Below are positions 17,026 to 59,628 of a DNA stretch of 64,000 nucleotides, piece after piece. The stretch is from assembly GCA_964419925.1 (NCBI GenBank), contig CAYQPR010000001.1, positions 34,865 through 98,864 of the forward strand, written 5' to 3'. A program made the translations under genes and the position numbers. A model generated the notes under the pieces. That model was not told the origin of the DNA. It did no database searches and worked only from the letters and a program-made list of their open reading frames with translations. Source of the DNA: Candidatus Woesearchaeota archaeon. GTDB lineage: Archaea > Nanobdellota > Nanobdellia > SCGC-AAA011-G17 > GW2011-AR20. The stretch's first letter is position 1, and every line of letters begins with the position of its first letter.

Positions 17026-20000
17026 ATGAAAAAAGGAGTTTATGTTATTGTTTTATTATTGGTTTTATTTTCTGCTTATTTTTTAATTAATGTTTTTAGT
17101 GAAGAGGTTGTTGGAGGAAAGGTTAAAACAAATAATCAAGATTCTCAGCCACAACAAAATATGATTAATTATATACAAAAATCATTAACAAATATTAATT
17201 ATAATAAGATTATAACAACTTCTAATGCAGAACAAGAATTAAGAAATTATATGGGCACTTTAAATATAAATGATGAACATTTTAAGTTAGATAAAATTAC
17301 TCAATTCAAGAATAAATTATTTGTTTATTTTGATCAATATTATAAGAATATTCCAGTTTATAATTCTAAGAACGTATTTTATGTTAATAATGAAAAACTA
17401 AGTTTTACAAAAACAAATTATTATGGTAAAATTAATTTAGATGTTAATCCTAATTTAAAAGAAAACCAAATTGATGATTTAATTAAAAATAAAAATTTTC
17501 TAAACCAATTTGAAAATAAATATTATGATATTATTGGAAATGAGAGAAGGTATGATTTTTCTAAAATTAATTTAGATCAAATCAAAATAGATAAAAAAGA
17601 ATTACTCATTTATCCTAAAAATGATGAATACTACCTAAGTTATAGACTAGTTATTAATCATAAAGATTTTGATTTAACTTATTTTATTGATGCAAATACC
17701 GGGGGGATATTGGATATAAAAGATAATAGAATTTACTATGATGTTTCTGGAACAGTTATAGGGAAGGAATGGGAAGATCCTTTTACAGGGGGAACACAAT
17801 TGGAAAAACCATTTCAACACAACTATATTGGTATTGGTGAAAATCAAATTGAAACTGATGAAAATGGTTATTATTATATATCAGATTTGAATGGATTAAC
17901 TAATCTTGAATCTTATTTATCTGGACCGTGGGTAACTGTTTATAATTCCCAATTAGAAGAATCAAAACATCTTTCTTCCTTTAGTGATAACTCTCAACAT
18001 GATTGGAACTGGGATTTAGATGATAACTCTTATTTAGATGAAGAGAGTAATGTGTTTTACCACATTAATCGAATTCATGATTATGCGGTTTCTATTGGAA
18101 CTGTCGAATTATCTCATTTGCCCGCCACAGTAAATCATGATAATCATTGCAACGCATTTTACTCACGTTACAATAGTTATGGTGTAAATTTTTTTGAAAA
18201 AGGTGATATTCAGGTTGAAGATTTCTTTTTTCCAGAAAATAATTACAATCTTACGTGTGAAAATACCGCATTAATTAATGATGTGGTTTTACATGAATAT
18301 GGACATTACATTATTGATGAATTAGACCCATTACTTTATGATCTTTCAAGTGATTCAAGATTAGATGCAGGGAGAATGCATGAAGGTTTAGCTGATTATT
18401 TTGCATGCGATTTAAATAACAACACAAATTTGGCAGAGGGATTTTATGTAAATGTTACCCGCCCAGTGATTGATATTTCGTTGCCACTTCGAACGTGCAA
18501 TAGTGGAAATCGTTATCCGAAAGATTACGGCAAAGAGATACATTTCGGAGGTAAGATCATATCAAGTTCTGTATTTAGTATAAGGGAAAAAATTGGTAAA
18601 GAGCAATTAGATCCAATTTTGATTAATGCTTTGAGACTCCAACCAACTAATTTTATAGAGTTGTTAGATTCATTAATAATTGCCGACGATGATAATAATA
18701 ACATACTTGATGGGACTCCTCATATAGTAGATATCTGTACTTCTTTCTATGATCATGGGATACTTTCAGATTATTGCATTGGATTTACCAGCAAACCTAT
18801 TGCACATATAGATGAGATTATTCAATCAGTTAATGAAGATCCAAAAATAATATCTGGAAAAATAAATATAAAAGGAACTGTATACCCATCTTATCAATCT
18901 ACATTAGAGAGATACATAATTAGTATTGGAAATTATTCGGTAACATTTCAAAATCCAAATGGTATAAAAAAAGATATTTTAAGTTATAGTTTTGATACCT
19001 TTCATGTAGATGACGGTACCTATAATCTTAGTTTAATCGCAATAGATTCTAACGGTTTTATAGAAAGTGATAACTTCAAGATTTATATTGACAATAAATG
19101 GCCAATAAATTTAACAGTTAGACCAGATTATGGTTTTTCTACTGGTTCTCCTGTGGCATTTAATCTTGATAATGATGCTGAAGATGAAATCTTGATTAGT
19201 GTAGTGAAGACAAATAACCCTGGAGAAAAGCTTAGTTATTATCTTTATGCATTTAAGAGTAATGGGAATCGTCTAGAAGGATGGCCAAAAAGGTATAGTA
19301 ACTTTGAAATAAACCCTCAAACAGCTGGAACGAGTATTAGTAATATACCCGATCCGTCTATTGGTGATTTAGAAAATGATGGCAATAATGAGATTGTGAT
19401 TTCAATCGGTAATTTATTAGCAGTGTTAAATTTAAGTGGAGATGTTAAATGGTCAAAAAGTCTTGATGGATATTCATATGCTAGTCCCGTTTTAGCAGAT
19501 TTGTTTAATGATGGAAAGTTAGAAATTATTATTACCCAAAATTTCTTTGACACTAGGACGGTTCCTCCACTCTTAAATTCGAGCCTTATTGTTTATGATT
19601 CAGAGGGCACAATAAAATGGCAAAAAAAATTTGAAAATTATTTTATTGGAGATAGTTATTCAACGATGGGCGATGTTGATGGAGATGGGCATAAAGAAAT
19701 TGTTGTTGTTATGTATAACATTAATGAGTTTAAAAGCAAAATTTATATCTATAATAAAAATGGCGTTCTATTGGAAGGATGGCCAAAATTGATTGAAGGC
19801 ATAAGTAAGGCTTCGTCCCCAATTTTAGCAGATATTAATCATGAGAATAAATTGAGTATATTTTTTGGTGCATCAAGAAAATCGCATTTGCAAAATAGTT
19901 ATCAATACACAATTTATGGATTTTCTTATAATGGAATTAGTTTAAATAATTGGCCTATAAATTTGTCAAGACCTTCATTCTATAACCGACATATTTTTTC

Positions 20001-20925
20001 TATGAGTGACTTAGATGAAGATGGTTATCCTGAAATTGTTGTACCTCTTGATAAAATTTATATCTTGAACAAAAATGGTACTGTTAGAAGTATTCTAAAT
20101 GATACTAATTCAAGATTGGCATACTCTTTTAATATTGGTTCTGGTGTTTCAGATATAGATGGTAACGGAGATAAGGAAATTGTTATTAATACTGGAGAAG
20201 GATCAAATCTTCGTAGTATTACAATATACAAAGATACCGGTGAGATAATCTCGAGTTGGCCAAAACAATTAAATGGATTTGCCAAATCCAGCCCATTAAT
20301 ATCAGATATCGATAAAGACAAAAAAATAGAAATTATTGTAGCGACAGAATTAGGATCATTATACTTTTTTGAACAAGACACCTCAATTAATGAGTATCAA
20401 TTTGATTGGCAAATGTTCCGACATGATGTTCAACATACAGGACAATTTGATAATAAGGATAAAAACATTAAAATTATTAATCTAGTTAAACCGGGTTCTT
20501 TAAAGGTTGATCAAACAGGAACATTCATATGGTCCTCCATCGCTCAAAGTTTTAAAAATAATACCATTTTGTGGGACATTAAATGGACGGGCCCAATTGG
20601 AATTGGTTCTGGTCTTAAAGGAACATGTCAAGATAGATTTTGTTTTAATTATTCAGCCATTCAAAAATGGACAAAACCAGGAAAATATACGATTACGGCA
20701 AAAGTTTCAAATGGTTTAAACTCGGATACAAATATTGCTGAAATTAATGTTGGAATGTGTTCGGATGGTATGCTCTATGGTTCATGTTCTAAAACAAAAC
20801 CAAATTATTGTAATAGCAATGGAAAAATAATTAATAATTGCCAAAGATGTGGCTGTCCTCGTAATTTATTGTGTCAAAAGAATGGAAGCTGTAAAATCGG
20901 AAATGATTTACCAAAAACTAATTAA
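17026..20925 (+). CDS. large exported zincin (HEYGH gluzincin-like) plus FG-GAP/beta-propeller repeat surface protein with a Cys-rich C-terminus
   Basis: N-terminal signal/anchor, HEYGH...EGLADYF metalloprotease motif, at least 7 repeats of the form D(L/V)D(G/E)DG..EIVV (integrin-alpha/FG-GAP-like), and a C-terminal Cys-rich tail. Confidence 0.6.
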   Translation: MKKGVYVIVLLLVLFSAYFLINVFSEEVVGGKVKTNNQDSQPQQNMINYIQKSLTNINYNKIITTSNAEQELRNYMGTLNINDEHFKLDKITQFKNKLFVYFDQYYKNIPVYNSKNVFYVNNEKLSFTKTNYYGKINLDVNPNLKENQIDDLIKNKNFLNQFENKYYDIIGNERRYDFSKINLDQIKIDKKELLIYPKNDEYYLSYRLVINHKDFDLTYFIDANTGGILDIKDNRIYYDVSGTVIGKEWEDPFTGGTQLEKPFQHNYIGIGENQIETDENGYYYISDLNGLTNLESYLSGPWVTVYNSQLEESKHLSSFSDNSQHDWNWDLDDNSYLDEESNVFYHINRIHDYAVSIGTVELSHLPATVNHDNHCNAFYSRYNSYGVNFFEKGDIQVEDFFFPENNYNLTCENTALINDVVLHEYGHYIIDELDPLLYDLSSDSRLDAGRMHEGLADYFACDLNNNTNLAEGFYVNVTRPVIDISLPLRTCNSGNRYPKDYGKEIHFGGKIISSSVFSIREKIGKEQLDPILINALRLQPTNFIELLDSLIIADDDNNNILDGTPHIVDICTSFYDHGILSDYCIGFTSKPIAHIDEIIQSVNEDPKIISGKINIKGTVYPSYQSTLERYIISIGNYSVTFQNPNGIKKDILSYSFDTFHVDDGTYNLSLIAIDSNGFIESDNFKIYIDNKWPINLTVRPDYGFSTGSPVAFNLDNDAEDEILISVVKTNNPGEKLSYYLYAFKSNGNRLEGWPKRYSNFEINPQTAGTSISNIPDPSIGDLENDGNNEIVISIGNLLAVLNLSGDVKWSKSLDGYSYASPVLADLFNDGKLEIIITQNFFDTRTVPPLLNSSLIVYDSEGTIKWQKKFENYFIGDSYSTMGDVDGDGHKEIVVVMYNINEFKSKIYIYNKNGVLLEGWPKLIEGISKASSPILADINHENKLSIFFGASRKSHLQNSYQYTIYGFSYNGISLNNWPINLSRPSFYNRHIFSMSDLDEDGYPEIVVPLDKIYILNKNGTVRSILNDTNSRLAYSFNIGSGVSDIDGNGDKEIVINTGEGSNLRSITIYKDTGEIISSWPKQLNGFAKSSPLISDIDKDKKIEIIVATELGSLYFFEQDTSINEYQFDWQMFRHDVQHTGQFDNKDKNIKIINLVKPGSLKVDQTGTFIWSSIAQSFKNNTILWDIKWTGPIGIGSGLKGTCQDRFCFNYSAIQKWTKPGKYTITAKVSNGLNSDTNIAEINVGMCSDGMLYGSCSKTKPNYCNSNGKIINNCQRCGCPRNLLCQKNGSCKIGNDLPKTN

Positions 20926-46496: not shown

Positions 46497-46765
46497 ATTA
46501 CCATCCTGTAGAACTCAGATTCCCCGATAGTTGGACTTTTTCTAATTATTTTTATTATGTCACCTTTTTTTACATCTAAATTTATAACCGCTGGATCTTC
46601 TTTTAGAATTCTTGGAAGCTGTTTTTTTGATACGTTTAATTTTTTTACCAATTCGTCAGCCTCCTCTTCACTCAATTTTATGTGCTTAGGTACAAAGTTA
46701 TGTTTCTCAACGTTGATTTCTTGTTCCATTTTTTTTGGTATGAACGGGCCGGATGGGACTTTCAC
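46493..46765 (-). CDS. rpoH: RNA polymerase subunit H (Rpb5-like)
   Basis: HNFVPKH..LSEEEADEL..PAV..KGDIIKIIRKSPTIGESEFYRMVI. The true start is probably the internal Met at ~46729, because the first ~13 codons overlap the tRNA-Lys gene. Confidence 0.8.
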   Translation of the reverse strand: MKVPSGPFIPKKMEQEINVEKHNFVPKHIKLSEEEADELVKKLNVSKKQLPRILKEDPAVINLDVKKGDIIKIIRKSPTIGESEFYRMVI

Positions 46766-46841
46766 ATCGTTTTGAACCCACGACCACCTGCTTTCTTCTT
46801 TGCTTAAAAGGCAGGTGCTCTACCAAGCTGAGCTACCGGCC
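46744..46841 (-). tRNA. tRNA-Lys (anticodon UUU) carrying two ~12-nt insertions (putative introns) in the anticodon loop and T-loop
   Basis: Hand fold: GGGCCGG-TA-GCTC-AGCTTGGTA-GAGC-A-CCTGC-[CTTTTAA+GCAAAGAAGAAA]-GCAGG-TGGTC-GTGGG-[TTCAAA+ACGATGTGAAAG+T]-CCCAT-CCGGCCC-G. Removing the two inserts gives a canonical 74-nt tRNA. Confidence 0.55.
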
Positions 46842-47057
46842 CATCATCGTCGATATTTTTGAACAATCTTGCTATTTTTTAGTTTTAGCTGAAGTTATTT
46901 ATAGTTCTTACGGGCATAAATTTGTATCTGAAAACGTTTTTTGAACTTTTAGTCATTTTTTAGAAAGATTGTCCTTTTATCGATGATTTTTTTGCATTTT
47001 ATTGGTTTATAAAACTTTCTCTTCTTTTGATGTGCAAACAGGTTATATATAAAGGTT

Positions 47058-47240: not shown

Positions 47241-48113
47241 TTATAGCTTTGTTTGGAAAAAAGTAGGTTTATAGTTTGTTACAACAATCTCGTTAATTTT
47301 GCCTCTATCATTCCCATTACTATTAATCATCCTATTTGCCCTAACAATTTCAATATTATGCTCATTATACAAATTTTTAATAAATTCAGTGTCGCTATTG
47401 CTTAACATAACATTACAACCTTTTTTATGTAACTTCTTAAAGACTTGTGCTAATTGCTTTTGTTCATCTTCTAGAAAGTTATCCTTTGTATATGTAGTAA
47501 AGCTTTCTTTCTTTAAAGGCATATAAGGTGGATCAAAATAAATAAAATCTTTCTTTTTAGCATATTCTAAAACTTTTTCAAAAGACATATTTTTAATTTC
47601 AACATTCTTTAATAATTGAGATAATCGTCTTAACTCTGTTTCATTATATATCGATGGATTAACATAACTACCAATAGGGACATTAAAACCACCCTTTGAA
47701 TTAACACGATATAAACCATTAAAACAAGTCTTATTTAGATAAATAGTTCTTGACGCTCTTTCTATTTTATTTAATTCTTTAGGATTTAAATCTCTTATTT
47801 TATAGTAATATTCTGTATTATGTGCTTGTTTATGTTCCTTTAAGCTTAAAATTAATTCCTCAACATTATTTTTAATAACCTCATAACAATTCATTAACTC
47901 CTCATTTGTATCAGAAATTAAAACTTTCTTGGGATTATAAGTTTGTAATATATAAAACAAGACAGCTCCACCACCAACAAATGGTTCATAATAATTTTCT
48001 ATTTTTCTAGGAAAGAATTTTTGAAACTGTTTCAATAATTGCTTTTTACCACCAGCCCATTTTACAATAGTAGGAATTTCTACCCTTACCATATTTTTAT
48101 TAATAATTTTCAT
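47241..48113 (-). CDS. dam: Dam-type N6-adenine DNA methyltransferase (D12 class)
   Basis: Motif I VKWAGGKKQLL...EPFVGGGAV and motif IV IYFDPPYMP. No adjacent restriction endonuclease was recognised. Confidence 0.8.
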   Translation of the reverse strand: MKIINKNMVRVEIPTIVKWAGGKKQLLKQFQKFFPRKIENYYEPFVGGGAVLFYILQTYNPKKVLISDTNEELMNCYEVIKNNVEELILSLKEHKQAHNTEYYYKIRDLNPKELNKIERASRTIYLNKTCFNGLYRVNSKGGFNVPIGSYVNPSIYNETELRRLSQLLKNVEIKNMSFEKVLEYAKKKDFIYFDPPYMPLKKESFTTYTKDNFLEDEQKQLAQVFKKLHKKGCNVMLSNSDTEFIKNLYNEHNIEIVRANRMINSNGNDRGKINEIVVTNYKPTFFQTKL

Positions 48114-49090
48114 TTTTTTAAACCTTTTGATAATAAGATTAATTCAAGCCATCTATTATTATCTTCTAATTTTAATGTAGGAATTGCCAATTCATAAGGG
48201 CATTTATTTATTGCTTGATGAACCCTAATAAAATTATAATAAATTTCCCAACCTTTCATTATGCTTTGGGCAGAATACAAAGAGCCGTGAAATCCACGAA
48301 ATACTTTTGTTCTTGCTCTTACGTTGTTGTGCAATCTCTCTATTTTATGATTAAAACCTCTTTCATCAGCGATTACAATATTGTGAACTATTTTTGTTTT
48401 AGCTTCTCTTTTATGTAATCCAAAAGATTTGTTTAATGCTTTTCTATAAGCTTGTAAACCATCTGTTGTAACTACATTAACTTGTTCGCCTGTCTTTTGT
48501 TTTGCTACTTTTAAAACATTAGCCATATTCTCAATAGTTCTACTTTGTAAATAATCTGAAGCTACAATAAACCTTGTTTTTGTATCCATAACATCTACAA
48601 ACCAATTCTGTTCTACACCTAATTTTGCTTTATGACTTTTACGTCTTCTATATTCTACCTCATCACTCATTAACTCTTTACCAGCCTGAACATTTAATTT
48701 ATTTGTATAATCATTAATTAGATTAGAATATTTAACAACCCACCTATAAATTGTTGAGTTATTAGAATTGTGAGGATAAAAAGCTTGTAAATGTTTTTGT
48801 ATACTTCTTGTTGAAATACCTCTAAAAAATAGATCAAGACATAAAGTAATTTTGTTTTTTGAATTTTTCATTCGGCAGAATCCATCATCTAAAATGAAAT
48901 TCTTTCTGCAATTCTTACAGAAATATCTTTGTATATTACCTCTATTCTTGGTATACCTTAATCCTCTCTTCTTAGTATTTCGAGAATTACAATAAATACA
49001 GGAAACATTTTTATACTTGTTTTGATTATCCTTTGTAGGATCGATTTGTTCTTGACGGGACATTTTGATTCCTGTGGGCTTCACGCCCAC
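48110..49090 (-). CDS. IS6-family DDE transposase with an N-terminal zinc finger
   Basis: N-terminal CIYC..CKNC finger, and a C-terminal region (GFNHKIERLHNNVRARTKVFRGFHGSLYSAQSIMKGWEIYYNFIRVHQAI) that closely resembles the IS6/IS26/ISH14 transposase core. Confidence 0.75.
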   Translation of the reverse strand: MGVKPTGIKMSRQEQIDPTKDNQNKYKNVSCIYCNSRNTKKRGLRYTKNRGNIQRYFCKNCRKNFILDDGFCRMKNSKNKITLCLDLFFRGISTRSIQKHLQAFYPHNSNNSTIYRWVVKYSNLINDYTNKLNVQAGKELMSDEVEYRRRKSHKAKLGVEQNWFVDVMDTKTRFIVASDYLQSRTIENMANVLKVAKQKTGEQVNVVTTDGLQAYRKALNKSFGLHKREAKTKIVHNIVIADERGFNHKIERLHNNVRARTKVFRGFHGSLYSAQSIMKGWEIYYNFIRVHQAINKCPYELAIPTLKLEDNNRWLELILLSKGLKK

Positions 49091-52871: not shown

Positions 52872-53273
52872 TCAAATTTCTGAATTTTTTTCTAGTAGAC
52901 CAAATAAAATGCCCTTTACTACATTTAATCCTTCAAGCGTATAAACTTTTGGAGTTTTGCCCGATACATAAGTTTTTTTAATATAATTCATTGCTGATTT
53001 TAAGTTTTCTAGTTTATCTTTTTCTTCATTAAAAATTAAATCAGGTTGTAGTGCAACAAATATTTGTTTTCCGTCTTTATTCGAGAGATAAATAAGATTT
53101 TTTTCTTTAAGTTTTGTTAAAATATCATATACATTAGTCCTATGCATTTTTGTTCTTTTTGAAACTTGTGTTGCATTGGAATTTTTATTTTTTAGAATAT
53201 CAAGATAAACAATCGTCTGCATTTTTGGTATGCCTATCGATTCAAAAGCCTTTAAGATATTTTCATCAGTCAT
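52872..53273 (-). CDS. TrmB/MarR-like winged-helix transcriptional regulator
   Basis: N-terminal HTH (IVYLDILKNKNSNATQVSKRTKMHRTNVYDILTKLKEKNLI). Confidence 0.45.
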   Translation of the reverse strand: MTDENILKAFESIGIPKMQTIVYLDILKNKNSNATQVSKRTKMHRTNVYDILTKLKEKNLIYLSNKDGKQIFVALQPDLIFNEEKDKLENLKSAMNYIKKTYVSGKTPKVYTLEGLNVVKGILFGLLEKNSEI

Positions 53274-53361: not shown

Positions 53362-53433
53362 CGCCCTGACCGGGATTCGAACCCGGGTTGCTACCGTGAC
53401 AGGGTAGAGTCCTAACCACTAGACTATCAAGGC
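53362..53433 (-). tRNA. tRNA-Asp (GUC)
   Basis: Hand fold: GCCTTGA-TA-GTCT-AGTGGTTA-GGAC-T-CTACC-CTGTCAC-GGTAG-CAAC-CCGGG-TTCGAAT-CCCGG-TCAGGGC-G. Confidence 0.8.
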
Positions 53434-53459: not shown

Positions 53460-54107
53460 TTAAAGTTTGTTATTTAAACCCTGGATGAGTTTTTCTTGTT
53501 TTCTTTTAAGATTAAATCCAATAAGTTTACTAAACTTTTTAACTTCCTTTTTTCTATTTACAACGATTGCAAAGACGTTTCTTTTTAAACCATATCCTTT
53601 AGCTAGTCTGGAATAAATACCAAATTTTTCTAATAAACTTTTTAGCTGTAAAAGACCTTTTTTATTTATAGAATATAACCTAATTTCAATACTATTTGTT
53701 TTATTATTACAAATTACCGAACCTTCGTCGTCATAAAATGCCCTTAGGAATTCTGTTTTAATTTTATTACTTGACTTTTTTATTTGATTTGGTAAACTCC
53801 AATTATAGGATCTATAATTTCCATATCTTAGTAAGTCTTCATAAACTTTTTTTGAATATAAATTAACAAATGGTATCCATTCATTTGTTTTTCCAGAAGG
53901 ATTTAATCCTCTTGTCATTTTTAGCCCATATACTAAATAAATATCTTTTTCAAAATTTTTTAACGATTCTTCGTCTTTGACTTCGTATCTTATGCGATAA
54001 TTATGTCTGCTTTTATTTATCGAACCATCTGCCATAAGTCTTGCGATTATTCTTGCTTTTGGAATTGAAAGCATAAAACTATTTTGACGAATAAGATTTA
54101 TTCTCAT
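53460..54107 (-). CDS. free-standing LAGLIDADG-type homing-endonuclease-like protein (two motifs)
   Basis: IIARLMADGSI and LRAFYDDEGSV match the two LAGLIDADG motifs at ~100-aa spacing. Confidence 0.5.
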   Translation of the reverse strand: MRINLIRQNSFMLSIPKARIIARLMADGSINKSRHNYRIRYEVKDEESLKNFEKDIYLVYGLKMTRGLNPSGKTNEWIPFVNLYSKKVYEDLLRYGNYRSYNWSLPNQIKKSSNKIKTEFLRAFYDDEGSVICNNKTNSIEIRLYSINKKGLLQLKSLLEKFGIYSRLAKGYGLKRNVFAIVVNRKKEVKKFSKLIGFNLKRKQEKLIQGLNNKL

Positions 54108-54199
54108 TATCTAATAAAACAAATTTTTATTTATAAATCCGACCCGCGAGGTTGTCACTTGGACAGTTGGGAAATAAAGTGTATTTTAGAGAATATAAA

Positions 54200-54351
54200 T
54201 CCCCACAGCCGGATTTGAACCAGCGACCTCACGGGATCTGCTGTCTGTTTTTCATTCCTGGTCAAAAACCTTAGGTCAAACAGCGCTCTTTTAAGCTACA
54301 GCCATCTAAGCCATATTTTATATGTGTGCTCTACCGCTGAGCTATGTGGGG
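54200..54351 (-). tRNA. intron-containing tRNA (~80-nt insertion between D-arm and variable region); anticodon not resolved by eye
   Basis: Perfect 5' CCCCACA-TA-GCTC-AGCGGTA-GAGC ... and 3' AGGTC-GCTGG-TTCAAAT-CCGGC-TGTGGGG-A halves, with the acceptor stem pairing across 152 nt. Unusual C1-G72 pair. Confidence 0.5.
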
Positions 54352-54392
54352 AATAGTAAGTTACAAATAAATTTATTTATAAATCTAACTTT

Positions 54393-55004
54393 TTAGAGAC
54401 AAACTCTATTTTCACTGCAGCCATTACAATAATCTTCAAAAACAAAAACTCTATTTTCACATTTTAATAAACAACCTTTATTTTCACAATTTTCCAAAGG
54501 ATATTGAAGTGAACATACTTCTTCATCATTTATAGGATCACATGTTTTATCAATGTAAACTTTATTGTTTATTTTTGTTATAAATATCTCATTACCTGGA
54601 GAAAAATATAAACTATCTCCGTTTTTATCTACATTTACATTTGTTGCCATTAATTTTGCATAATCAACTTTATTAAAGTTTATGCTTAACTCTCGATTAC
54701 CTGTCCCTTTTAGATTCAAAGAATATTCTTGTTTATTTATTTTATTTGGCAATGTTAATATTTTAGTGTATCCATTTTCAACTCTTGAAGCAATGTTTAT
54801 CTCATTTCTTAAACTTTCTAATAAATCGGTTCCTGCAATAGTATCCCTTCTTTTAAAAGTTAAGTTGAAATAATTATATGAAATTACTAAATAAACCGTT
54901 AATAAAATAAAGGCAGCTGCGACAAAAAATATAAATTCAGTTGATACCTGGCCTTTTTTCATTTTAAGTACATTCACAGTTTGCATCACTGCATGTTTTT
55001 TCAA
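54393..55004 (-). CDS. archaeal type IV pilin-like protein (class III signal peptide) with a Cys-rich C-terminal domain
   Basis: KKGQVSTEF followed by a hydrophobic helix matches the euryarchaeal prepilin peptidase site (KGQ|xSxEF). The probable start is the Met 14 codons in. Eight Cys in the last 50 aa. Confidence 0.55.
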   Translation of the reverse strand: MKKHAVMQTVNVLKMKKGQVSTEFIFFVAAAFILLTVYLVISYNYFNLTFKRRDTIAGTDLLESLRNEINIASRVENGYTKILTLPNKINKQEYSLNLKGTGNRELSINFNKVDYAKLMATNVNVDKNGDSLYFSPGNEIFITKINNKVYIDKTCDPINDEEVCSLQYPLENCENKGCLLKCENRVFVFEDYCNGCSENRVCL

Positions 55005-55512
55005 TTATCCATACACTATTTTCACATTTTAATTGGCATGAACTTCCTTTGCAAGCTTTATAACTTTCTGGAGTTTTACATTCTAAATTGTTATCTTCAC
55101 ATGGAATTTGAACTAAAACACTATCGCCTAAAGATTTTACAACTATTTTTTTCTTGCCTTGTGTTAATGGAATTTCCCCATATGAGAATAAATTTACCTC
55201 GGCTTGCTTTACAATGTCTATAATTTTTCCTTCTTTATTTCTAATTTTAAAAATAACTTCTTTATTGTTAAAACTTATACTTTCAATATTTTCTGGAAAA
55301 TTAGTATCAATCACTAATTGATTACCTTCTCCATAAACATAAACCTCATTTGCTTTTTTGCTTATTTCGTTTGCTATTGACGAAACTTTTGCTGTTGTAA
55401 TTGAATAATCACTTTCGTTTGAATATTTTACATAGATGTAGGTTATTGGAATCATAATGAGAATAACTAGTCCTGCAACAACTAAATATTCTGTAGCAAC
55501 TTGCGCTTTCAA
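54964..55512 (-). CDS. archaeal type IV pilin-like protein, paralogue, with a Cys-rich C-terminal domain
   Basis: MKAQVATEY plus hydrophobic helix. Its C-terminus shares the C(Q/L)LKCEN(S/R)V(W/F) motif with the neighbouring pilin. Confidence 0.55.
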   Translation of the reverse strand: MKAQVATEYLVVAGLVILIMIPITYIYVKYSNESDYSITTAKVSSIANEISKKANEVYVYGEGNQLVIDTNFPENIESISFNNKEVIFKIRNKEGKIIDIVKQAEVNLFSYGEIPLTQGKKKIVVKSLGDSVLVQIPCEDNNLECKTPESYKACKGSSCQLKCENSVWIIEKTCSDANCECT

Positions 55513-55565
55513 GATATCACCTCTTAAATATTAATTAAAATTAGTATATAAAACTAATCTTTTAT

Positions 55566-55919
55566 TTAAATGAGATTTCTTTCTTCTCTCCATTCGTTTA
55601 CTTTTAATTTGCAATACTCTTTGAAATTTGGATGATCATCTAAACCCAACCCATAATATTTCCAAACAATTTTTTTATTTTCAAAAGTTAGAACCTCAAC
55701 TCTTTCTAAGTCATTTACAGGAATATTAAAATAATCATCTAGAAATCTTATTATTGCTTCTGTGAAACCATTTTTATAACTAAATCTATTTTCTTTTGCT
55801 ATATTTTTAAAATTTTCAAAGTAATGCGATAAGGCTAACTTTTCACCCCATGTTAATTGGAAACCATAAATGTCCTCTATCCATCTTTCCCCCGCTTTTA
55901 ATTCCTTAAAATTAGTCAT
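55566..55919 (-). CDS. hypothetical cytoplasmic protein in the pilin/ABC operon
   Basis: 117-aa ORF, 1-nt spacing to the upstream gene. Confidence 0.3.
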   Translation of the reverse strand: MTNFKELKAGERWIEDIYGFQLTWGEKLALSHYFENFKNIAKENRFSYKNGFTEAIIRFLDDYFNIPVNDLERVEVLTFENKKIVWKYYGLGLDDHPNFKEYCKLKVNEWREERNLI

Positions 55920-55920
55920 T

Positions 55921-56634
55921 TTATATATCTTTAAAAAAATTATGAAATTTAATCAAATCATCAATTAAATTAGTTTCTTCTAAATTTTTAGTAATTTTTC
56001 TTAAACCTATTTTACTTCCGGTGTAAATTGGAGATTGATTAAATTGAGTTGTTAAAACCGTTTCAAATTCATGTATTAATCTTGGAAACGCGTTATAGTA
56101 TTCACCCTCGTGTTTTATATTTCTAATATCTATTTCTCTGAATGGTTTATTTATTATTGATTTGGCTAATTTTCTTGATAAATCTAAAACTTCATTTGCA
56201 GTGAATACCGTTATTTCATCTTTAATTGCATCTATCTTCCATTCATCTCCCTCTTGAACGTCTAAATATTTTAATAATAATTCTTTTGTAGAAAATATCC
56301 CTCCAAGATAAAATTCTTTTTTTATAATATAATGTCCATCTACCTTATTCAAATTTATTGATCCAATACCTAGAATTGGCGGAAATAAATTTTTATATTT
56401 ACTGTCTCCTAAACTTTTGCTTCCAATTAAAGTAAACAATCTATGAATATCACTTTTATCTTTTTTGAATCCATATTTTGTTATGAATGAATTATCATTA
56501 TTTTCTGATTCTTTGTAATTAATATTAATTCCATGAGTTAATAAATTTAATTTTACTGAAATTAAGCAAGATTCTAAATCTTTTATTTCTTCCTTTGTAA
56601 ATGCTTGATAAATTGTTTTTGCCATTTTATTCAT
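55921..56634 (-). CDS. hypothetical cytoplasmic protein in the pilin/ABC operon
   Basis: 237-aa ORF overlapping the permease gene by 8 nt. Confidence 0.3.
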   Translation of the reverse strand: MNKMAKTIYQAFTKEEIKDLESCLISVKLNLLTHGININYKESENNDNSFITKYGFKKDKSDIHRLFTLIGSKSLGDSKYKNLFPPILGIGSINLNKVDGHYIIKKEFYLGGIFSTKELLLKYLDVQEGDEWKIDAIKDEITVFTANEVLDLSRKLAKSIINKPFREIDIRNIKHEGEYYNAFPRLIHEFETVLTTQFNQSPIYTGSKIGLRKITKNLEETNLIDDLIKFHNFFKDI

Positions 56635-57811
56635 ACCTTAATGCATCAACTGGTTTTAATTTTGAAGCTTGATATGCCGGCAAAAATCCCGAAAGCATTC
56701 CGATAACAAATGCAAAAAATAATCCAAACAACAATAAAGGAAGTTCTAATTTAACACTTAATAAAAATCCAGCACTTTTAGCAATTGTTTGCGTTGAAAA
56801 AGCAATTATAACTCCCAAAGAGGTTCCAAAAAATCCACCAACTAAACCCATTAAACCAGATTCGATTAAAAATATTTGTAAAATGTCTGAATTTCTTGCA
56901 CCAATCGCCTTCATTACTCCAATATCTTTAGTTCTTTCTAAAACGCTTGTGTACATTGAATTCATAATTCCTATTGCTCCGACAACTAATGAAATTAAAG
57001 CTATTCCAACTAAGACCACTTGCATTATACCCAAGACCTGATTTATTTGTTCTAAGATTTGTGTTGCTGTTAATACTTGAAAATTAGTATCATTTCTTTT
57101 TCTTTCCAATTCTTTTTCTATTTTCTTTTGTAATTCAGGTATATCTGAAGCAGATTTAACTTGAGCTAAAATTGTATCAACTTTATCTTTTTCATTAAAA
57201 ATATCCCTCGCATCTTCTAAAGAAATTCCAATTTGATTATCATCTTGGCTACTTCCTGTTTCTTTCCAGATTCCTATAATTTTAAATTCTTTTTTATTTA
57301 TCTCTATTTTATCCCCAATTCTTAATTCTTTTTTGAACATTTCTTTTGAAACCCTTGAACCAATTACCGCAGAATATTTATCATGTTCTTTAATCATTCT
57401 TCCTTGTTCCAACTCTCCACCAGAATCTTTTATGAACTGCTCATAACCTTTTGAGGGGATTGCATTAATTAAGGTAAATCCCGTTTCTTTATTTTTTTTA
57501 ACTTCAGATGATCTAAACAATGCAGGAGTCACATATTTAAAACCCGAAATTTTTTCTATGGTCTCTACATCTTCTTGTGTTAATCCTTGTGAGGCCGATC
57601 CTGGACCCTGAAATCCTTTTGCTGAGATTATAATTCTATTTGCACCAAATGTTTCAAATTGTTCTTTAATTGAGTTTTCTAAACCTCTAGAAATCATCAT
57701 TAAAGAAATGATTGAAGCTACCCCAATAATTATTCCAATTATTGTAAGCCATGATCTTAGTTTTCTATGTATTATGCTATTTACAGCAAAAGCAAAATAA
57801 TCTCTAATCAT
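56627..57811 (-). CDS. ABC transporter permease, MacB/FtsX type
   Basis: N-terminal TM, large extracytoplasmic domain, C-terminal 3-TM FtsX bundle (MKAIGARNSDILQIFLIESGLMGLVGG). Confidence 0.8.
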   Translation of the reverse strand: MIRDYFAFAVNSIIHRKLRSWLTIIGIIIGVASIISLMMISRGLENSIKEQFETFGANRIIISAKGFQGPGSASQGLTQEDVETIEKISGFKYVTPALFRSSEVKKNKETGFTLINAIPSKGYEQFIKDSGGELEQGRMIKEHDKYSAVIGSRVSKEMFKKELRIGDKIEINKKEFKIIGIWKETGSSQDDNQIGISLEDARDIFNEKDKVDTILAQVKSASDIPELQKKIEKELERKRNDTNFQVLTATQILEQINQVLGIMQVVLVGIALISLVVGAIGIMNSMYTSVLERTKDIGVMKAIGARNSDILQIFLIESGLMGLVGGFFGTSLGVIIAFSTQTIAKSAGFLLSVKLELPLLLFGLFFAFVIGMLSGFLPAYQASKLKPVDALRYE

Positions 57812-58631
57812 GTTTTTTCTTTTTTAATTTTTTGTAAATGAAGAAAATTAATATGATGATTAATATTGGAATTAAGATTGTTAAAAGACTACTTTGTTTT
57901 ACTAATCCTAATTGTTTTGCTTCTTCTTCACTGTAAACTTTTAGTGTTAAATATTTGTTTTCTGTAAACTCGTTGTTATTAGAATCTTTGTAATTAATCA
58001 TTAAGTTTAACTGAGGATTCTTAATCTTTGGAATTATGTTGTATTCTGCAGTTTCAAAATCATCTACATCAATCTGTCCGATATAAATTGAATTTGGAGA
58101 TAATGATTCGTAAGCTTGACTATCCTGCAATGTTATCTTTAGGAACTTTATTTGACTTAATCCATTATTAATTAATTTTAATGTTACTTTTCCGTTATCA
58201 TTTATTTTTACTAATGTTGATTCTTCTAAAATTAAATCTAATTTTGCTTTTGCATTTACTTCCAAGCTAATTAATGAATCTTTTGTGATGTTATCGTATG
58301 ATATCTTTATTGGAATTTTATATATTTGTGATTCTGCACTTGGTAAAGCAACTAAATCAAAATAGATTATAACTTGGTCTTCATCATTGATCTCATCAAT
58401 TATTTTTTCTGTTGAAGATCTTAATGGTGCAAAAGGAACTTGTGATAAATCCAATTTGACTAAGACATTTTTAATGTCTTGATCTCCAACATTTTCTAAT
58501 ACCACTTTTAATTGAATTGATTCTCCTGGTGAAACTTGACTAGGAAATGTTTCAAACGAACTGATTGCTATTTGTGCATTTACAAATGGCATTAATAACA
58601 ATGCTAATATTATTGTGATTATTTTTTTCAT
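57804..58631 (-). CDS. exported beta-rich protein with a C-terminal TM anchor (COG1361/CARDB-like partner of the FtsX permease)
   Basis: Signal peptide, ~230-aa beta-strand-rich ectodomain, C-terminal TM followed by KKLKKKKHD. Confidence 0.45.
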   Translation of the reverse strand: MKKIITIILALLLMPFVNAQIAISSFETFPSQVSPGESIQLKVVLENVGDQDIKNVLVKLDLSQVPFAPLRSSTEKIIDEINDEDQVIIYFDLVALPSAESQIYKIPIKISYDNITKDSLISLEVNAKAKLDLILEESTLVKINDNGKVTLKLINNGLSQIKFLKITLQDSQAYESLSPNSIYIGQIDVDDFETAEYNIIPKIKNPQLNLMINYKDSNNNEFTENKYLTLKVYSEEEAKQLGLVKQSSLLTILIPILIIILIFFIYKKLKKKKHD

Positions 58632-58873
58632 ATTTCTTCCTCCATTGCTTCCGGGTCTAGAAAAAATTCTAAACTTTTTGGAAACTCTTCATTGCTAGTA
58701 TTTAATTTCCATAATAATAATTCGACATTTCTATCAATATATTCTTTGTTTTTTTCAGAAAATGTCATAAATTGATTATCATTTTTTAATTCTTCAAATA
58801 ATTTATAATTTTCTGATTTGTATACTGATTCATATAGATTTTCTTTATTTTTATAAAACAAAACTGCATCCAT
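58628..58873 (-). CDS. small hypothetical protein
   Basis: 81 aa, between the ATPase and the exported protein, with overlapping stop and start. Confidence 0.3.
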   Translation of the reverse strand: MDAVLFYKNKENLYESVYKSENYKLFEELKNDNQFMTFSEKNKEYIDRNVELLLWKLNTSNEEFPKSLEFFLDPEAMEEEI

Positions 58874-58874
58874 T

Positions 58875-59546
58875 TTAACTCGCGATCCTCCCGTCTCTTA
58901 ATTTTATGATTTTATTTCCTAATTTTGTTAATTCAGGATTATGTGTAACTAAGATTATTGTTTTTCCTTTTTTATTTAAATTTTTCAATAAAGCCATGAT
59001 TTCATCTCCGGTTTTAGTATCTAAGTTTCCTGTTGGTTCATCAGCTAAAATTATTTCTGGATCATTTACTAAGGCTCTTGCAATCGCAACTCTTTGTCTT
59101 TGTCCGCCGGATAATTGACTTGGTAAATGATTGGTTCTATTTCCTAAACCAACTAGTTCTAAAACATCTTTGGCTTTTCTTAATTTAATATTTCTTGGAA
59201 CATTTTGAAATGTCATAGGTAAAATTACATTTTCTAATGCAGTTAAACTTGGAATGAGGTTAAATGTCTGAAATATAAAACCAATTTTCTTTCCCCTTAT
59301 TTGAGCTAAATCACTTTCGTGTAAATGAGCAATATTATCTTTTTCTAAATAAATTTCACCTTTTGTTGCAGTGTCTAGACATCCAACCATGTTCATTGCT
59401 GTACTTTTTCCAGAGCCTGAAGGACCCATTATAATTGCAAAGTCTCCTTTATTGATATTTAATGAAATTCCATTTAAAGCAGGAACTTCAACTTCGTCTA
59501 ATTTGTATATTTTATATACTTCGTCTAATTTGATTAATGTAGTCAT
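58875..59546 (-). CDS. ABC transporter ATP-binding protein (MacB/LolD-like)
   Basis: Walker A GPSGSGKST, signature LSGGQRQRVAIARAL, Walker B ILADEPTGNLD. Confidence 0.9.
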   Translation of the reverse strand: MTTLIKLDEVYKIYKLDEVEVPALNGISLNINKGDFAIIMGPSGSGKSTAMNMVGCLDTATKGEIYLEKDNIAHLHESDLAQIRGKKIGFIFQTFNLIPSLTALENVILPMTFQNVPRNIKLRKAKDVLELVGLGNRTNHLPSQLSGGQRQRVAIARALVNDPEIILADEPTGNLDTKTGDEIMALLKNLNKKGKTIILVTHNPELTKLGNKIIKLRDGRIAS

Positions 59547-59628
59547 GATTTTAGTGTTACATAGAGATTTATAAAGGTTTTGGTGTAATCTTTATTATAA
59601 AGTGGTAACATAACGAAAAGTTTAAATA

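Follow-up and report, generated by a model that had tools for sequence, protein, structure and literature searches.

Members of the MacB family of ATP-binding cassette (ABC) transporters are known as membrane extractors, LolCDE being one example, and a glutamate at mature position 5 is a typical feature of type IV pilins. A 2026 survey of type IV filament (TFF) systems in archaea ties class III signal proteins only to the binding-protein-dependent ABC importers of the bindosome (10.64898/2026.04.22.720090), and our literature searches found no described link of MacB/FtsX transporters to archaeal pilins. Genes of both kinds lie next to each other in the 64-kb stretch of DNA analysed here, hereafter the window (G+C of about 28%), which, judging from the names of the homologs of its genes ('Nanoarchaeota archaeon', 'Candidatus Woesearchaeota archaeon' and 'archaeon GW2011_AR20'), belongs to a Woesearchaeales-like DPANN archaeon. 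At positions 54393-59546, eight minus-strand open reading frames (ORFs) encode, in this order, an ABC ATPase, an 81-amino-acid (aa) protein, an exported immunoglobulin (Ig)-like protein, an FtsX permease, two proteins of 237 and 117 aa, and two pilin-like proteins, A and B. An initial annotation of this DNA had listed the same eight genes in the same order, all of which were found where it placed them, and had regarded them as one operon that couples the pilins to the transporter. Our preferred reading, to which we assign a probability of roughly two in three, is that they are three things lying side by side and not one system, and that the adjacency of transporter and pilin genes is gene order inherited within one clade of Woesearchaeales.

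According to this reading, the first component would be a MacB-type transporter unit formed by the ATPase, an optional small soluble protein, the anchored Ig-like protein and a permease with four transmembrane (TM) segments; the second would be a genome-specific insertion of two orphan genes, for proteins of 237 and 117 aa; and the third would be a self-contained cassette of the two pilin genes, A and B, driven by a TATA promoter of its own and equipped with a strong Shine-Dalgarno (SD) site. The tight junctions reported in the initial annotation are found at most boundaries, as neighbouring ORFs are separated by 1-nucleotide (nt) spacers or overlap by 4-8 nt, but not ahead of pilin A, where a 53-nt gap after the 117-aa gene is the sole exception and contains a TATA box and a SD site. 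This promoter and ribosome-binding site of the pilin pair (55516-55552, minus strand) comprises the TATA box TTTATATA at 55545-55552, which occurs once on the minus strand within 54393-59546, and, after a spacing of about 21 nt, the SD sequence GAGGTGAT at 55516-55523. The comparison set consisted of 36 related loci (L001 and following), and in the promoter alignment of 15 loci a TTTAWATA box 5' of pilin A is invariant (15/15) regardless of the preceding gene, while a GGTGAT SD site is kept in 14 of them, the exception being L033. In L001 and L014 the box stands directly 3' of the FtsX stop codon, and it is also kept in L033, a locus with no transporter genes nearby. Since the TATA box and the SD site are conserved irrespective of the upstream gene, the pilin pair has its own promoter, and the single eight-gene operon is not borne out, given that the 237- and 117-aa genes are moreover absent from all related loci and the 81-aa gene is patchily distributed; the conserved core is therefore ABC-CARDB-FtsX.

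The comparison of related loci displays both the linkage of the two modules and their separation. Every pilin A homolog that was found by searches with pilin A and had enough upstream DNA is located downstream of ABC-CARDB-FtsX genes on the same strand, in about 13 distinct lineages (L001, L002, L005, L009/L027, L013, L014, L015, L016, L018, L020, L030, L035/36 and the window) with pilin A identities of 43-63%. Nevertheless, both modules also occur apart from each other. Five loci (L010, L011, L029, L031 and L032), spread over three other genomic contexts, carry the transporter trio without pilins, at an FtsX identity to the window copy of 68-71%, just a little lower than the 68% (a partial fragment in L012) to 78% of the pilin-bearing loci. 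In a neighbour-joining tree built from the concatenated trio proteins (ABC, CARDB and FtsX), trios with and without pilins are intermingled, with a clean split in 0 of 100 bootstrap replicates, and this intermingling implies several separations or paralogy. Conversely, L033/L034 harbor a pilin pair (pilin B with 38% identity, the most distant relative looked up; pilin A of 224 aa with a Cys-rich tail) and no ABC, CARDB or FtsX gene within 7-8 kb on either side of it. The physical link put forward in the initial annotation thus stands in part: the trio adjoins pilins in about 13 lineages, but it is alone in five loci, and the pilin pair is alone in one lineage.

What the loci with both modules have in common is a set of housekeeping neighbors. 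Each complete locus of this kind has the SpoU methylase upstream, Rpb5/RpoB downstream, or both, and since at least one of these flanks is found at all of them, the association traces to one inherited syntenic block. In the AR20-like L009 no RNA polymerase genes are present within 4.4 kb 3' of pilin B; the full genome of AR20 (L027) has rpoB about 4.7 kb 3' of pilin B, so that the flank is stretched, not lost. A profile search with pilin A of the GTDB species-representative genomes returned one locus, identical to one already in the comparison set. With the modules occurring apart, and together only within the SpoU-RNA polymerase block, a dedicated pilin-transporter system is not what these loci point to, and on comparative grounds the linkage, which is not distinguishable from inherited gene order, is not well supported as anything more.

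The interval between FtsX and pilin A, which spans from about 35 bp to about 2.4 kb depending on the lineage, holds no gene in L001, L014, L030 and L036, a 41-aa and a 96-aa ORF in L009, PspC and a 155-aa ORF in L005, an AraC-type helix-turn-helix (HTH) gene with MscL and PspC in L002, some 2.4 kb of DNA in L015, and the 237- and 117-aa ORFs in the window. From this comparison the interval is a hot spot for insertion, filled with unrelated genes, and such variability is typical of a boundary between transcription units. A PspC-domain membrane protein of 67-69 aa, ending in VPRNPDKNK, is encoded by the commonest gene immediately 5' of the pilin A promoter and is found in the interval of L002, L005, L012, L013, L017, L018 and L020; the window contains none of the PspC, MscL and AraC-type HTH genes seen in the interval of L002.

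The occupants of the interval in the window are the orphan ORFs of 237 aa (55921-56634, minus strand) and 117 aa (55566-55919, minus strand), and tblastn searches with both proteins found no homolog across the 36 related loci. As the two genes are absent from all of these, the insert is specific to this genome, and the unknown partners that the initial annotation saw in them have no counterpart at any related locus. The ATG of the 237-aa ORF falls within the conserved end of the FtsX gene, and by sequence the two genes are predicted to be an orphan cytoplasmic pair, inserted exactly at the boundary past the FtsX stop codon. Neither they nor the 81-aa ORF have a match in Pfam, NCBIfam, PHROG or PADLOC, and the PHROG and PADLOC scans of these three proteins and of two upstream divergent ORFs gave no phage or defence link for the insert.

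The 223-aa ATPase (58875-59546, minus strand) matches the Pfam ABC_tran family (E=5.8e-33), has its best NCBIfam matches in DarD, MacB, LolD and FtsE (E=1e-74 to 1e-66, all under the equivalog cutoffs) and shares 70-83% identity with its counterparts across all related loci. The 394-aa permease (56627-57811, minus strand) matches MacB_PCD (PF12704, residues 20-233, E=1.9e-33) and FtsX (PF02687, E=9.7e-20, over the cutoff) and aligns over its full length to the solved MacB structure 5lil (residues 272-663, E=1.8e-44), with further matches to 5xu1, YtrF, LolC and LolF. It displays four hydrophobic segments, starting at residues 17, 255, 310 and 347, and the MacB periplasmic core domain sits between TM1 and TM2. 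The 275-aa exported protein (57804-58631, minus strand) carries a Sec signal peptide, a C-terminal TM anchor and a basic tail, and its gene is invariably placed between those of the ATPase and the permease in the loci compared. Among its 120 listed homologs, the named ones of which are from Woesearchaeota, Nanoarchaeota or AR20, identity is at least 48%. The COG1361/CARDB-like character ascribed to it is recorded for relatives, many homologs with 50-64% identity carrying a precomputed PF07705 annotation, but the window protein itself scores 20.3 bits against a cutoff of 22.7 (E=6.4e-4); a sequence search of the PDB with this CARDB-like protein gave nothing better than E of about 0.2. By these matches, and by their conservation across loci, the three proteins can be assigned to a MacB-type (type VII) ABC transporter trio, in agreement with the conserved trio named in the initial annotation. 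No paper on the ATPase/FtsX/COG1361 trio was found in the literature searches, and the Pfam and NCBIfam scans detected no gene for a MacA/HlyD-type membrane-fusion adaptor within the cluster. In a single metagenomic variant, L006 (3161-4497), the FtsX gene is split, with a 283-aa opposite-strand ORF overlapping the break, and the downstream pilin pair is intact.

The remaining gene of the unit encodes a small soluble protein of 81 aa (58628-58873, minus strand). Counterparts of 79-134 aa are found at the same position in L001, L005, L013, L015 and L035, sharing with it the motifs IYK..LN..LDPEA.EE, and a gap of 12-52 nt takes its place in L002, L009-L011 and L029-L032; this accessory gene evolves fast and is kept by only some relatives. 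Upstream of the whole unit, a putative TATA box, TTTATAAA (59568-59575, minus strand), was read from the sequence 21 nt 5' of the ABC ATG, a spacing that suggests a leaderless or near-leaderless transporter mRNA, and a TTTAWAWA box is found at a comparable distance from the ABC gene in L001, L010, L031 and L032. We infer the mechanism of the transporter from its family and not from the result of a tool: by analogy with MacB, LolCDE and FtsEX, it is most likely a mechanotransmission machine of the type VII ABC kind, in which the ATPase cycle in the cytoplasm would be transmitted mechanically to the extracytoplasmic domain of the permease, and this domain would act on, or together with, the anchored Ig-like partner at the cell envelope.

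Pilin A (182 aa, 54964-55512, minus strand) begins with MKAQVATEY, of which MKA would be the leader and QVATEY the start of the mature protein. Pilin B (189 aa, 54393-54962, minus strand) begins with MKKGQVSTEF, with a putative leader MKKG and a mature protein starting with QVSTEF; its true start is the ATG at 54962, one base past the pilin A stop codon, the mechanical ORF running to 55004. A scan of every window ORF of 50 aa or longer for a FlaFind-like motif and for hydropathy retrieved only these two, which makes the signal specific, and both families strictly keep K-[A/G/S], then Q-x-x-x-E-[FY] and a stretch of about 20 hydrophobic residues. The AlphaFold models (predicted local distance difference test, pLDDT, of 80.5 for pilin A; pLDDT of 92 and predicted TM-score, pTM, of 0.78 for pilin B) show a 58-residue helix at residues 3-60 and a beta head, a predicted shape corresponding to the 'lollipop' of pilins. 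Motif, hydropathy scan and predicted fold hence agree with the proposal of the initial annotation that both terminal genes encode type IV pilin-like proteins with class III signals. A Foldseek search of the PDB with the pilin A model yielded nothing at E<=0.001, and searching PDB sequences with the profile of pilin B gave no match.

Profile matches support the same assignment for the families but not at curated thresholds for the window proteins. Against Class_IIIsignal (PF04021), pilin B scores 14 bits, with a cutoff of 23.7 (E=0.05), and pilin A has no match, while four of 16 pilin A relatives match below threshold (best E=0.002). For DUF7266 (PF23928), with a gathering cutoff of 27.6 bits, five of 11 close pilin B relatives match below threshold, and the window pilin B is not among the matches listed; individual scores are 26.3 bits (P0168) and 25.6 bits (P0173). 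Out of 1.84 billion proteins, the pilin B profile retrieved 1,717 cluster representatives (394 at E<=1e-10), and all ten distant relatives sampled match DUF7266, one of them, P0223, over the cutoff at 27.9 bits; four also match Class_IIIsignal below threshold, and three long ones carry a C-terminal cohesin domain. Sequence profiles thus place the core of pilin B in a large DUF7266-like family, for which our literature searches found no paper.

The leader of pilin A deserves separate consideration. Its start codon is other than ATG in nearly all loci (including L002, L005, L009, L012, L015-L018, L020 and L030), being TTG in the window (55510-55512) and in L024, and ATT at the other non-ATG loci; in several loci an in-frame stop codon lies shortly 5' of it. 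Given the non-ATG start, this in-frame stop and a SD site 6-7 nt ahead, the leader is merely M-K-A. Such an extremely short leader, together with the ATT/TTG starts, the nearby stop and the scores below the Class_IIIsignal and DUF7266 cutoffs, would also be compatible with the two 'pilins' being unprocessed signal-anchor surface proteins, which display a Cys-rich binding module independently of pilus machinery and transporter alike. We regard this as improbable in view of the strict conservation of K-[A/G/S]-Q-x-x-x-E-[FY] and the hydrophobic stretch, including the glutamate at mature position 5, of the predicted pilin-like helix and head, of the relatives that reach the DUF7266 cutoff or match Class_IIIsignal, and of the tandem arrangement of the two genes, which is the usual layout of pilin sets.

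The Cys-rich module itself occupies the C-terminal tails of both proteins, each with eight cysteines and a common C-x3-KCEN-x-V-[WF] motif (BLASTP E=2e-7), and has no match in Pfam. The tail is absent from pilin A in L030 and L036 and from pilin B in L001, L005, L009, L014, L020 and L030, and it is present on pilin B in the window, L002, L012, L016, L017 and L019. At L015/L026 (8593-9654), a pilin B of 353 aa contains a domain of about 170 aa, of no recognised family, inside the Cys-rich module. Disulfides are favoured over metal binding by the even number of cysteines, by the position outside the cytoplasm and by the beta-rich model, and by sequence a pilin core with an interchangeable C-terminal module, either a Cys-rich knot or a cohesin, looks like the architecture of modular adhesive pilins. 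According to our preferred reading of three adjacent units, pilins A and B are most likely modular or minor adhesive pilins, a role that would fit a host- or surface-attached DPANN archaeon. We infer their cleavage, filament assembly and adhesion: a prepilin peptidase would cleave them, type IV pilus machinery encoded outside this locus would assemble them, and the Cys-rich module would be displayed for attachment.

Several points weigh against this reading. The window yielded no gene for a type IV pilus ATPase, a TadC platform or a prepilin peptidase, and a groundwater study reports type IV pilus components to be missing in DPANN genomes (10.1101/2020.05.14.094862), although such components have been reported in some DPANN (PMC6393860; 10.64898/2026.04.22.720090). 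About 13 lineages have retained adjacency, strand and order of the two modules, although the genes between and around the units have turned over heavily; the internal pilin promoter is compatible with, and does not exclude, read-through from the transporter promoter; and the pilin-less trios could be paralogs in genomes that carry a second, pilin-linked trio. The lack of a peptidase and a pilus ATPase from the window is also a point in favour of the unprocessed signal-anchor proteins considered above, and the lack of canonical machinery would fit a single surface system of the kind suggested in the initial annotation. In such a system the MacB-type machine and its Ig-like partner would handle the pilin-like proteins, for example by drawing their hydrophobic N-terminal helix out of the lipid bilayer in the way LolCDE removes lipoproteins, or by export or anchoring of an adhesive filament.

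For such a system speak the conservation of order and strand across about 13 lineages whose pilin A identity falls as low as 43%, the persistence of the linkage in AR20-like loci despite the shift of the RNA polymerase flank to about 4.7 kb, and the matches of the permease to LolC, LolE and LolF besides MacB. Nevertheless, we consider it, in either form, unlikely: the pilin pair is under its own conserved promoter, the interval is a hot spot at which unrelated genes are inserted, the trio is alone in five loci interspersed in the trio tree, the pilin pair is alone in L033/L034, and the association comes from a single syntenic block with housekeeping genes, suggesting one evolutionary event. 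In addition, a census of archaeal pili (PMC4858521) nowhere uses the words ABC or permease. The more specific proposal, drawn by analogy, that the machine and its partner act as a LolCDE-like extractor of pilin helices to build or anchor an adhesive structure, with no canonical type IV pilus ATPase and platform or alongside them, seems to us very unlikely, though the adjacency kept in about 13 lineages and the lack of pilus machinery in the window would agree with it.

Some neighboring features of the window are also worth describing. Directly 3' of pilin B lies a tRNA-like gene (54195-54352, minus strand) whose acceptor and D-arm (CCCCACATAGCTCAGCGGTAGAGCAC) are clean, as are its T-arm and acceptor (GCTGGTTCAAATCCGGCTGTGGGGA), the two parts lying some 85-95 nt apart. 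It was missed by ARAGORN with default settings and by the Rfam tRNA model even at E<=1, and when introns were forced an unconvincing tRNA-Leu(cag) with a 59-nt intron was obtained; it is probably a tRNA gene interrupted by at least one large or non-canonical intron. Between this gene and tRNA-Asp (53362-53433) is a free-standing LAGLIDADG_3 homing-endonuclease-like ORF (53460-54107, minus strand, Pfam E=8.5e-15), with a homolog of 68% identity at the same relative place 3' of pilin B in L002-L004 and a LAGLIDADG_3 ORF annotated there in L035. A further tRNA of 98 nt (46745-46842, minus strand; Rfam 51.4 bits, missed by ARAGORN) is also probably intron-bearing. A Dam-type D12 N6-adenine methyltransferase (47241-49090, minus strand, E=6e-69) adjoins an IS240-like DDE-domain ORF, and these two ORFs, a TrmB-type regulator (52872-53273) and the tRNAs are among the material in the approximately 7 kb that separate the pilin pair from the RNA polymerase operon, a distance of 0.5-3 kb in most related loci and of about 4.5-4.7 kb in L015 and L027. 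Elsewhere in the window, a 1,299-aa protein with FG-GAP/VCBS-type repeats (17026-20925, plus strand) is likely a large surface adhesin and another candidate attachment factor.

Were the units one system, the locus would reveal a new way of handling pilin-like proteins and give a function to the archaeal ATPase/FtsX/Ig trio. The evidence points in the opposite direction, towards an attractive 'operon' that amounts for the most part to gene order passed on by inheritance, together with an insert specific to this genome. For the surface biology of DPANN archaea, the locus contributes a compact, separately promoted pilin A/B cassette, whose Cys-rich module has been gained and lost between lineages and whose products are candidate host- or surface-attachment proteins, the pilin B family having cohesin-bearing members as well. 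For Woesearchaeales, it contributes a strongly conserved MacB-type transporter with an anchored Ig-like partner.

Compared with the known MacB/type VII ABC transporters (MacAB-TolC, LolCDE, FtsEX, the Gram-positive Spr0693-0695 and YtrF-type systems), the window permease is alike in having four TM segments and a large extracytoplasmic MacB core, and the ATPase is alike as well, being closest to DarD, MacB, LolD and FtsE. Unlike in MacB, the ATPase and the permease are separate polypeptides; unlike in MacAB, a C-terminally anchored CARDB-like Ig protein is found instead of a MacA-type adaptor, which the cluster lacks; and unlike the host of MacAB-TolC, this archaeon has no outer membrane. The pilin-like proteins resemble archaeal class III signal pilins (PF04021; DUF7266-like) in the short basic leader ending in G or A, the Q-x-x-x-E motif, the hydrophobic helix, the predicted helix with a beta head and the tandem genes. 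They differ in a leader of only 3-4 residues, the ATT/TTG starts of pilin A, the scores below cutoffs, the 8-Cys module and the lack of an adjoining pilus ATPase, platform or peptidase in the 64 kb. With the bimodular pilin PilB of Streptococcus sanguinis (PDB 7b7p) they share a pilin core with a swappable C-terminal module, although the window proteins are archaeal and carry another module, and the likeness is architectural and not one of sequence homology. In the bindosome of Sulfolobales, class III signal proteins are likewise encoded beside ABC transporter genes and not next to pilus machinery (10.64898/2026.04.22.720090; PMC3047682), but these are solute-binding proteins of importers, whereas the transporter here is of the MacB type, which uses no binding protein, and the linkage is separable. 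Identity with a bindosome was rejected, given that a MacB-type transporter is not a binding-protein-dependent importer and that the pilin heads are without a solute-binding protein domain. The parts of the cluster accordingly belong to known kinds, a MacB-type transporter and archaeal modular pilin-like proteins, to which an orphan insert specific to this genome has been added.

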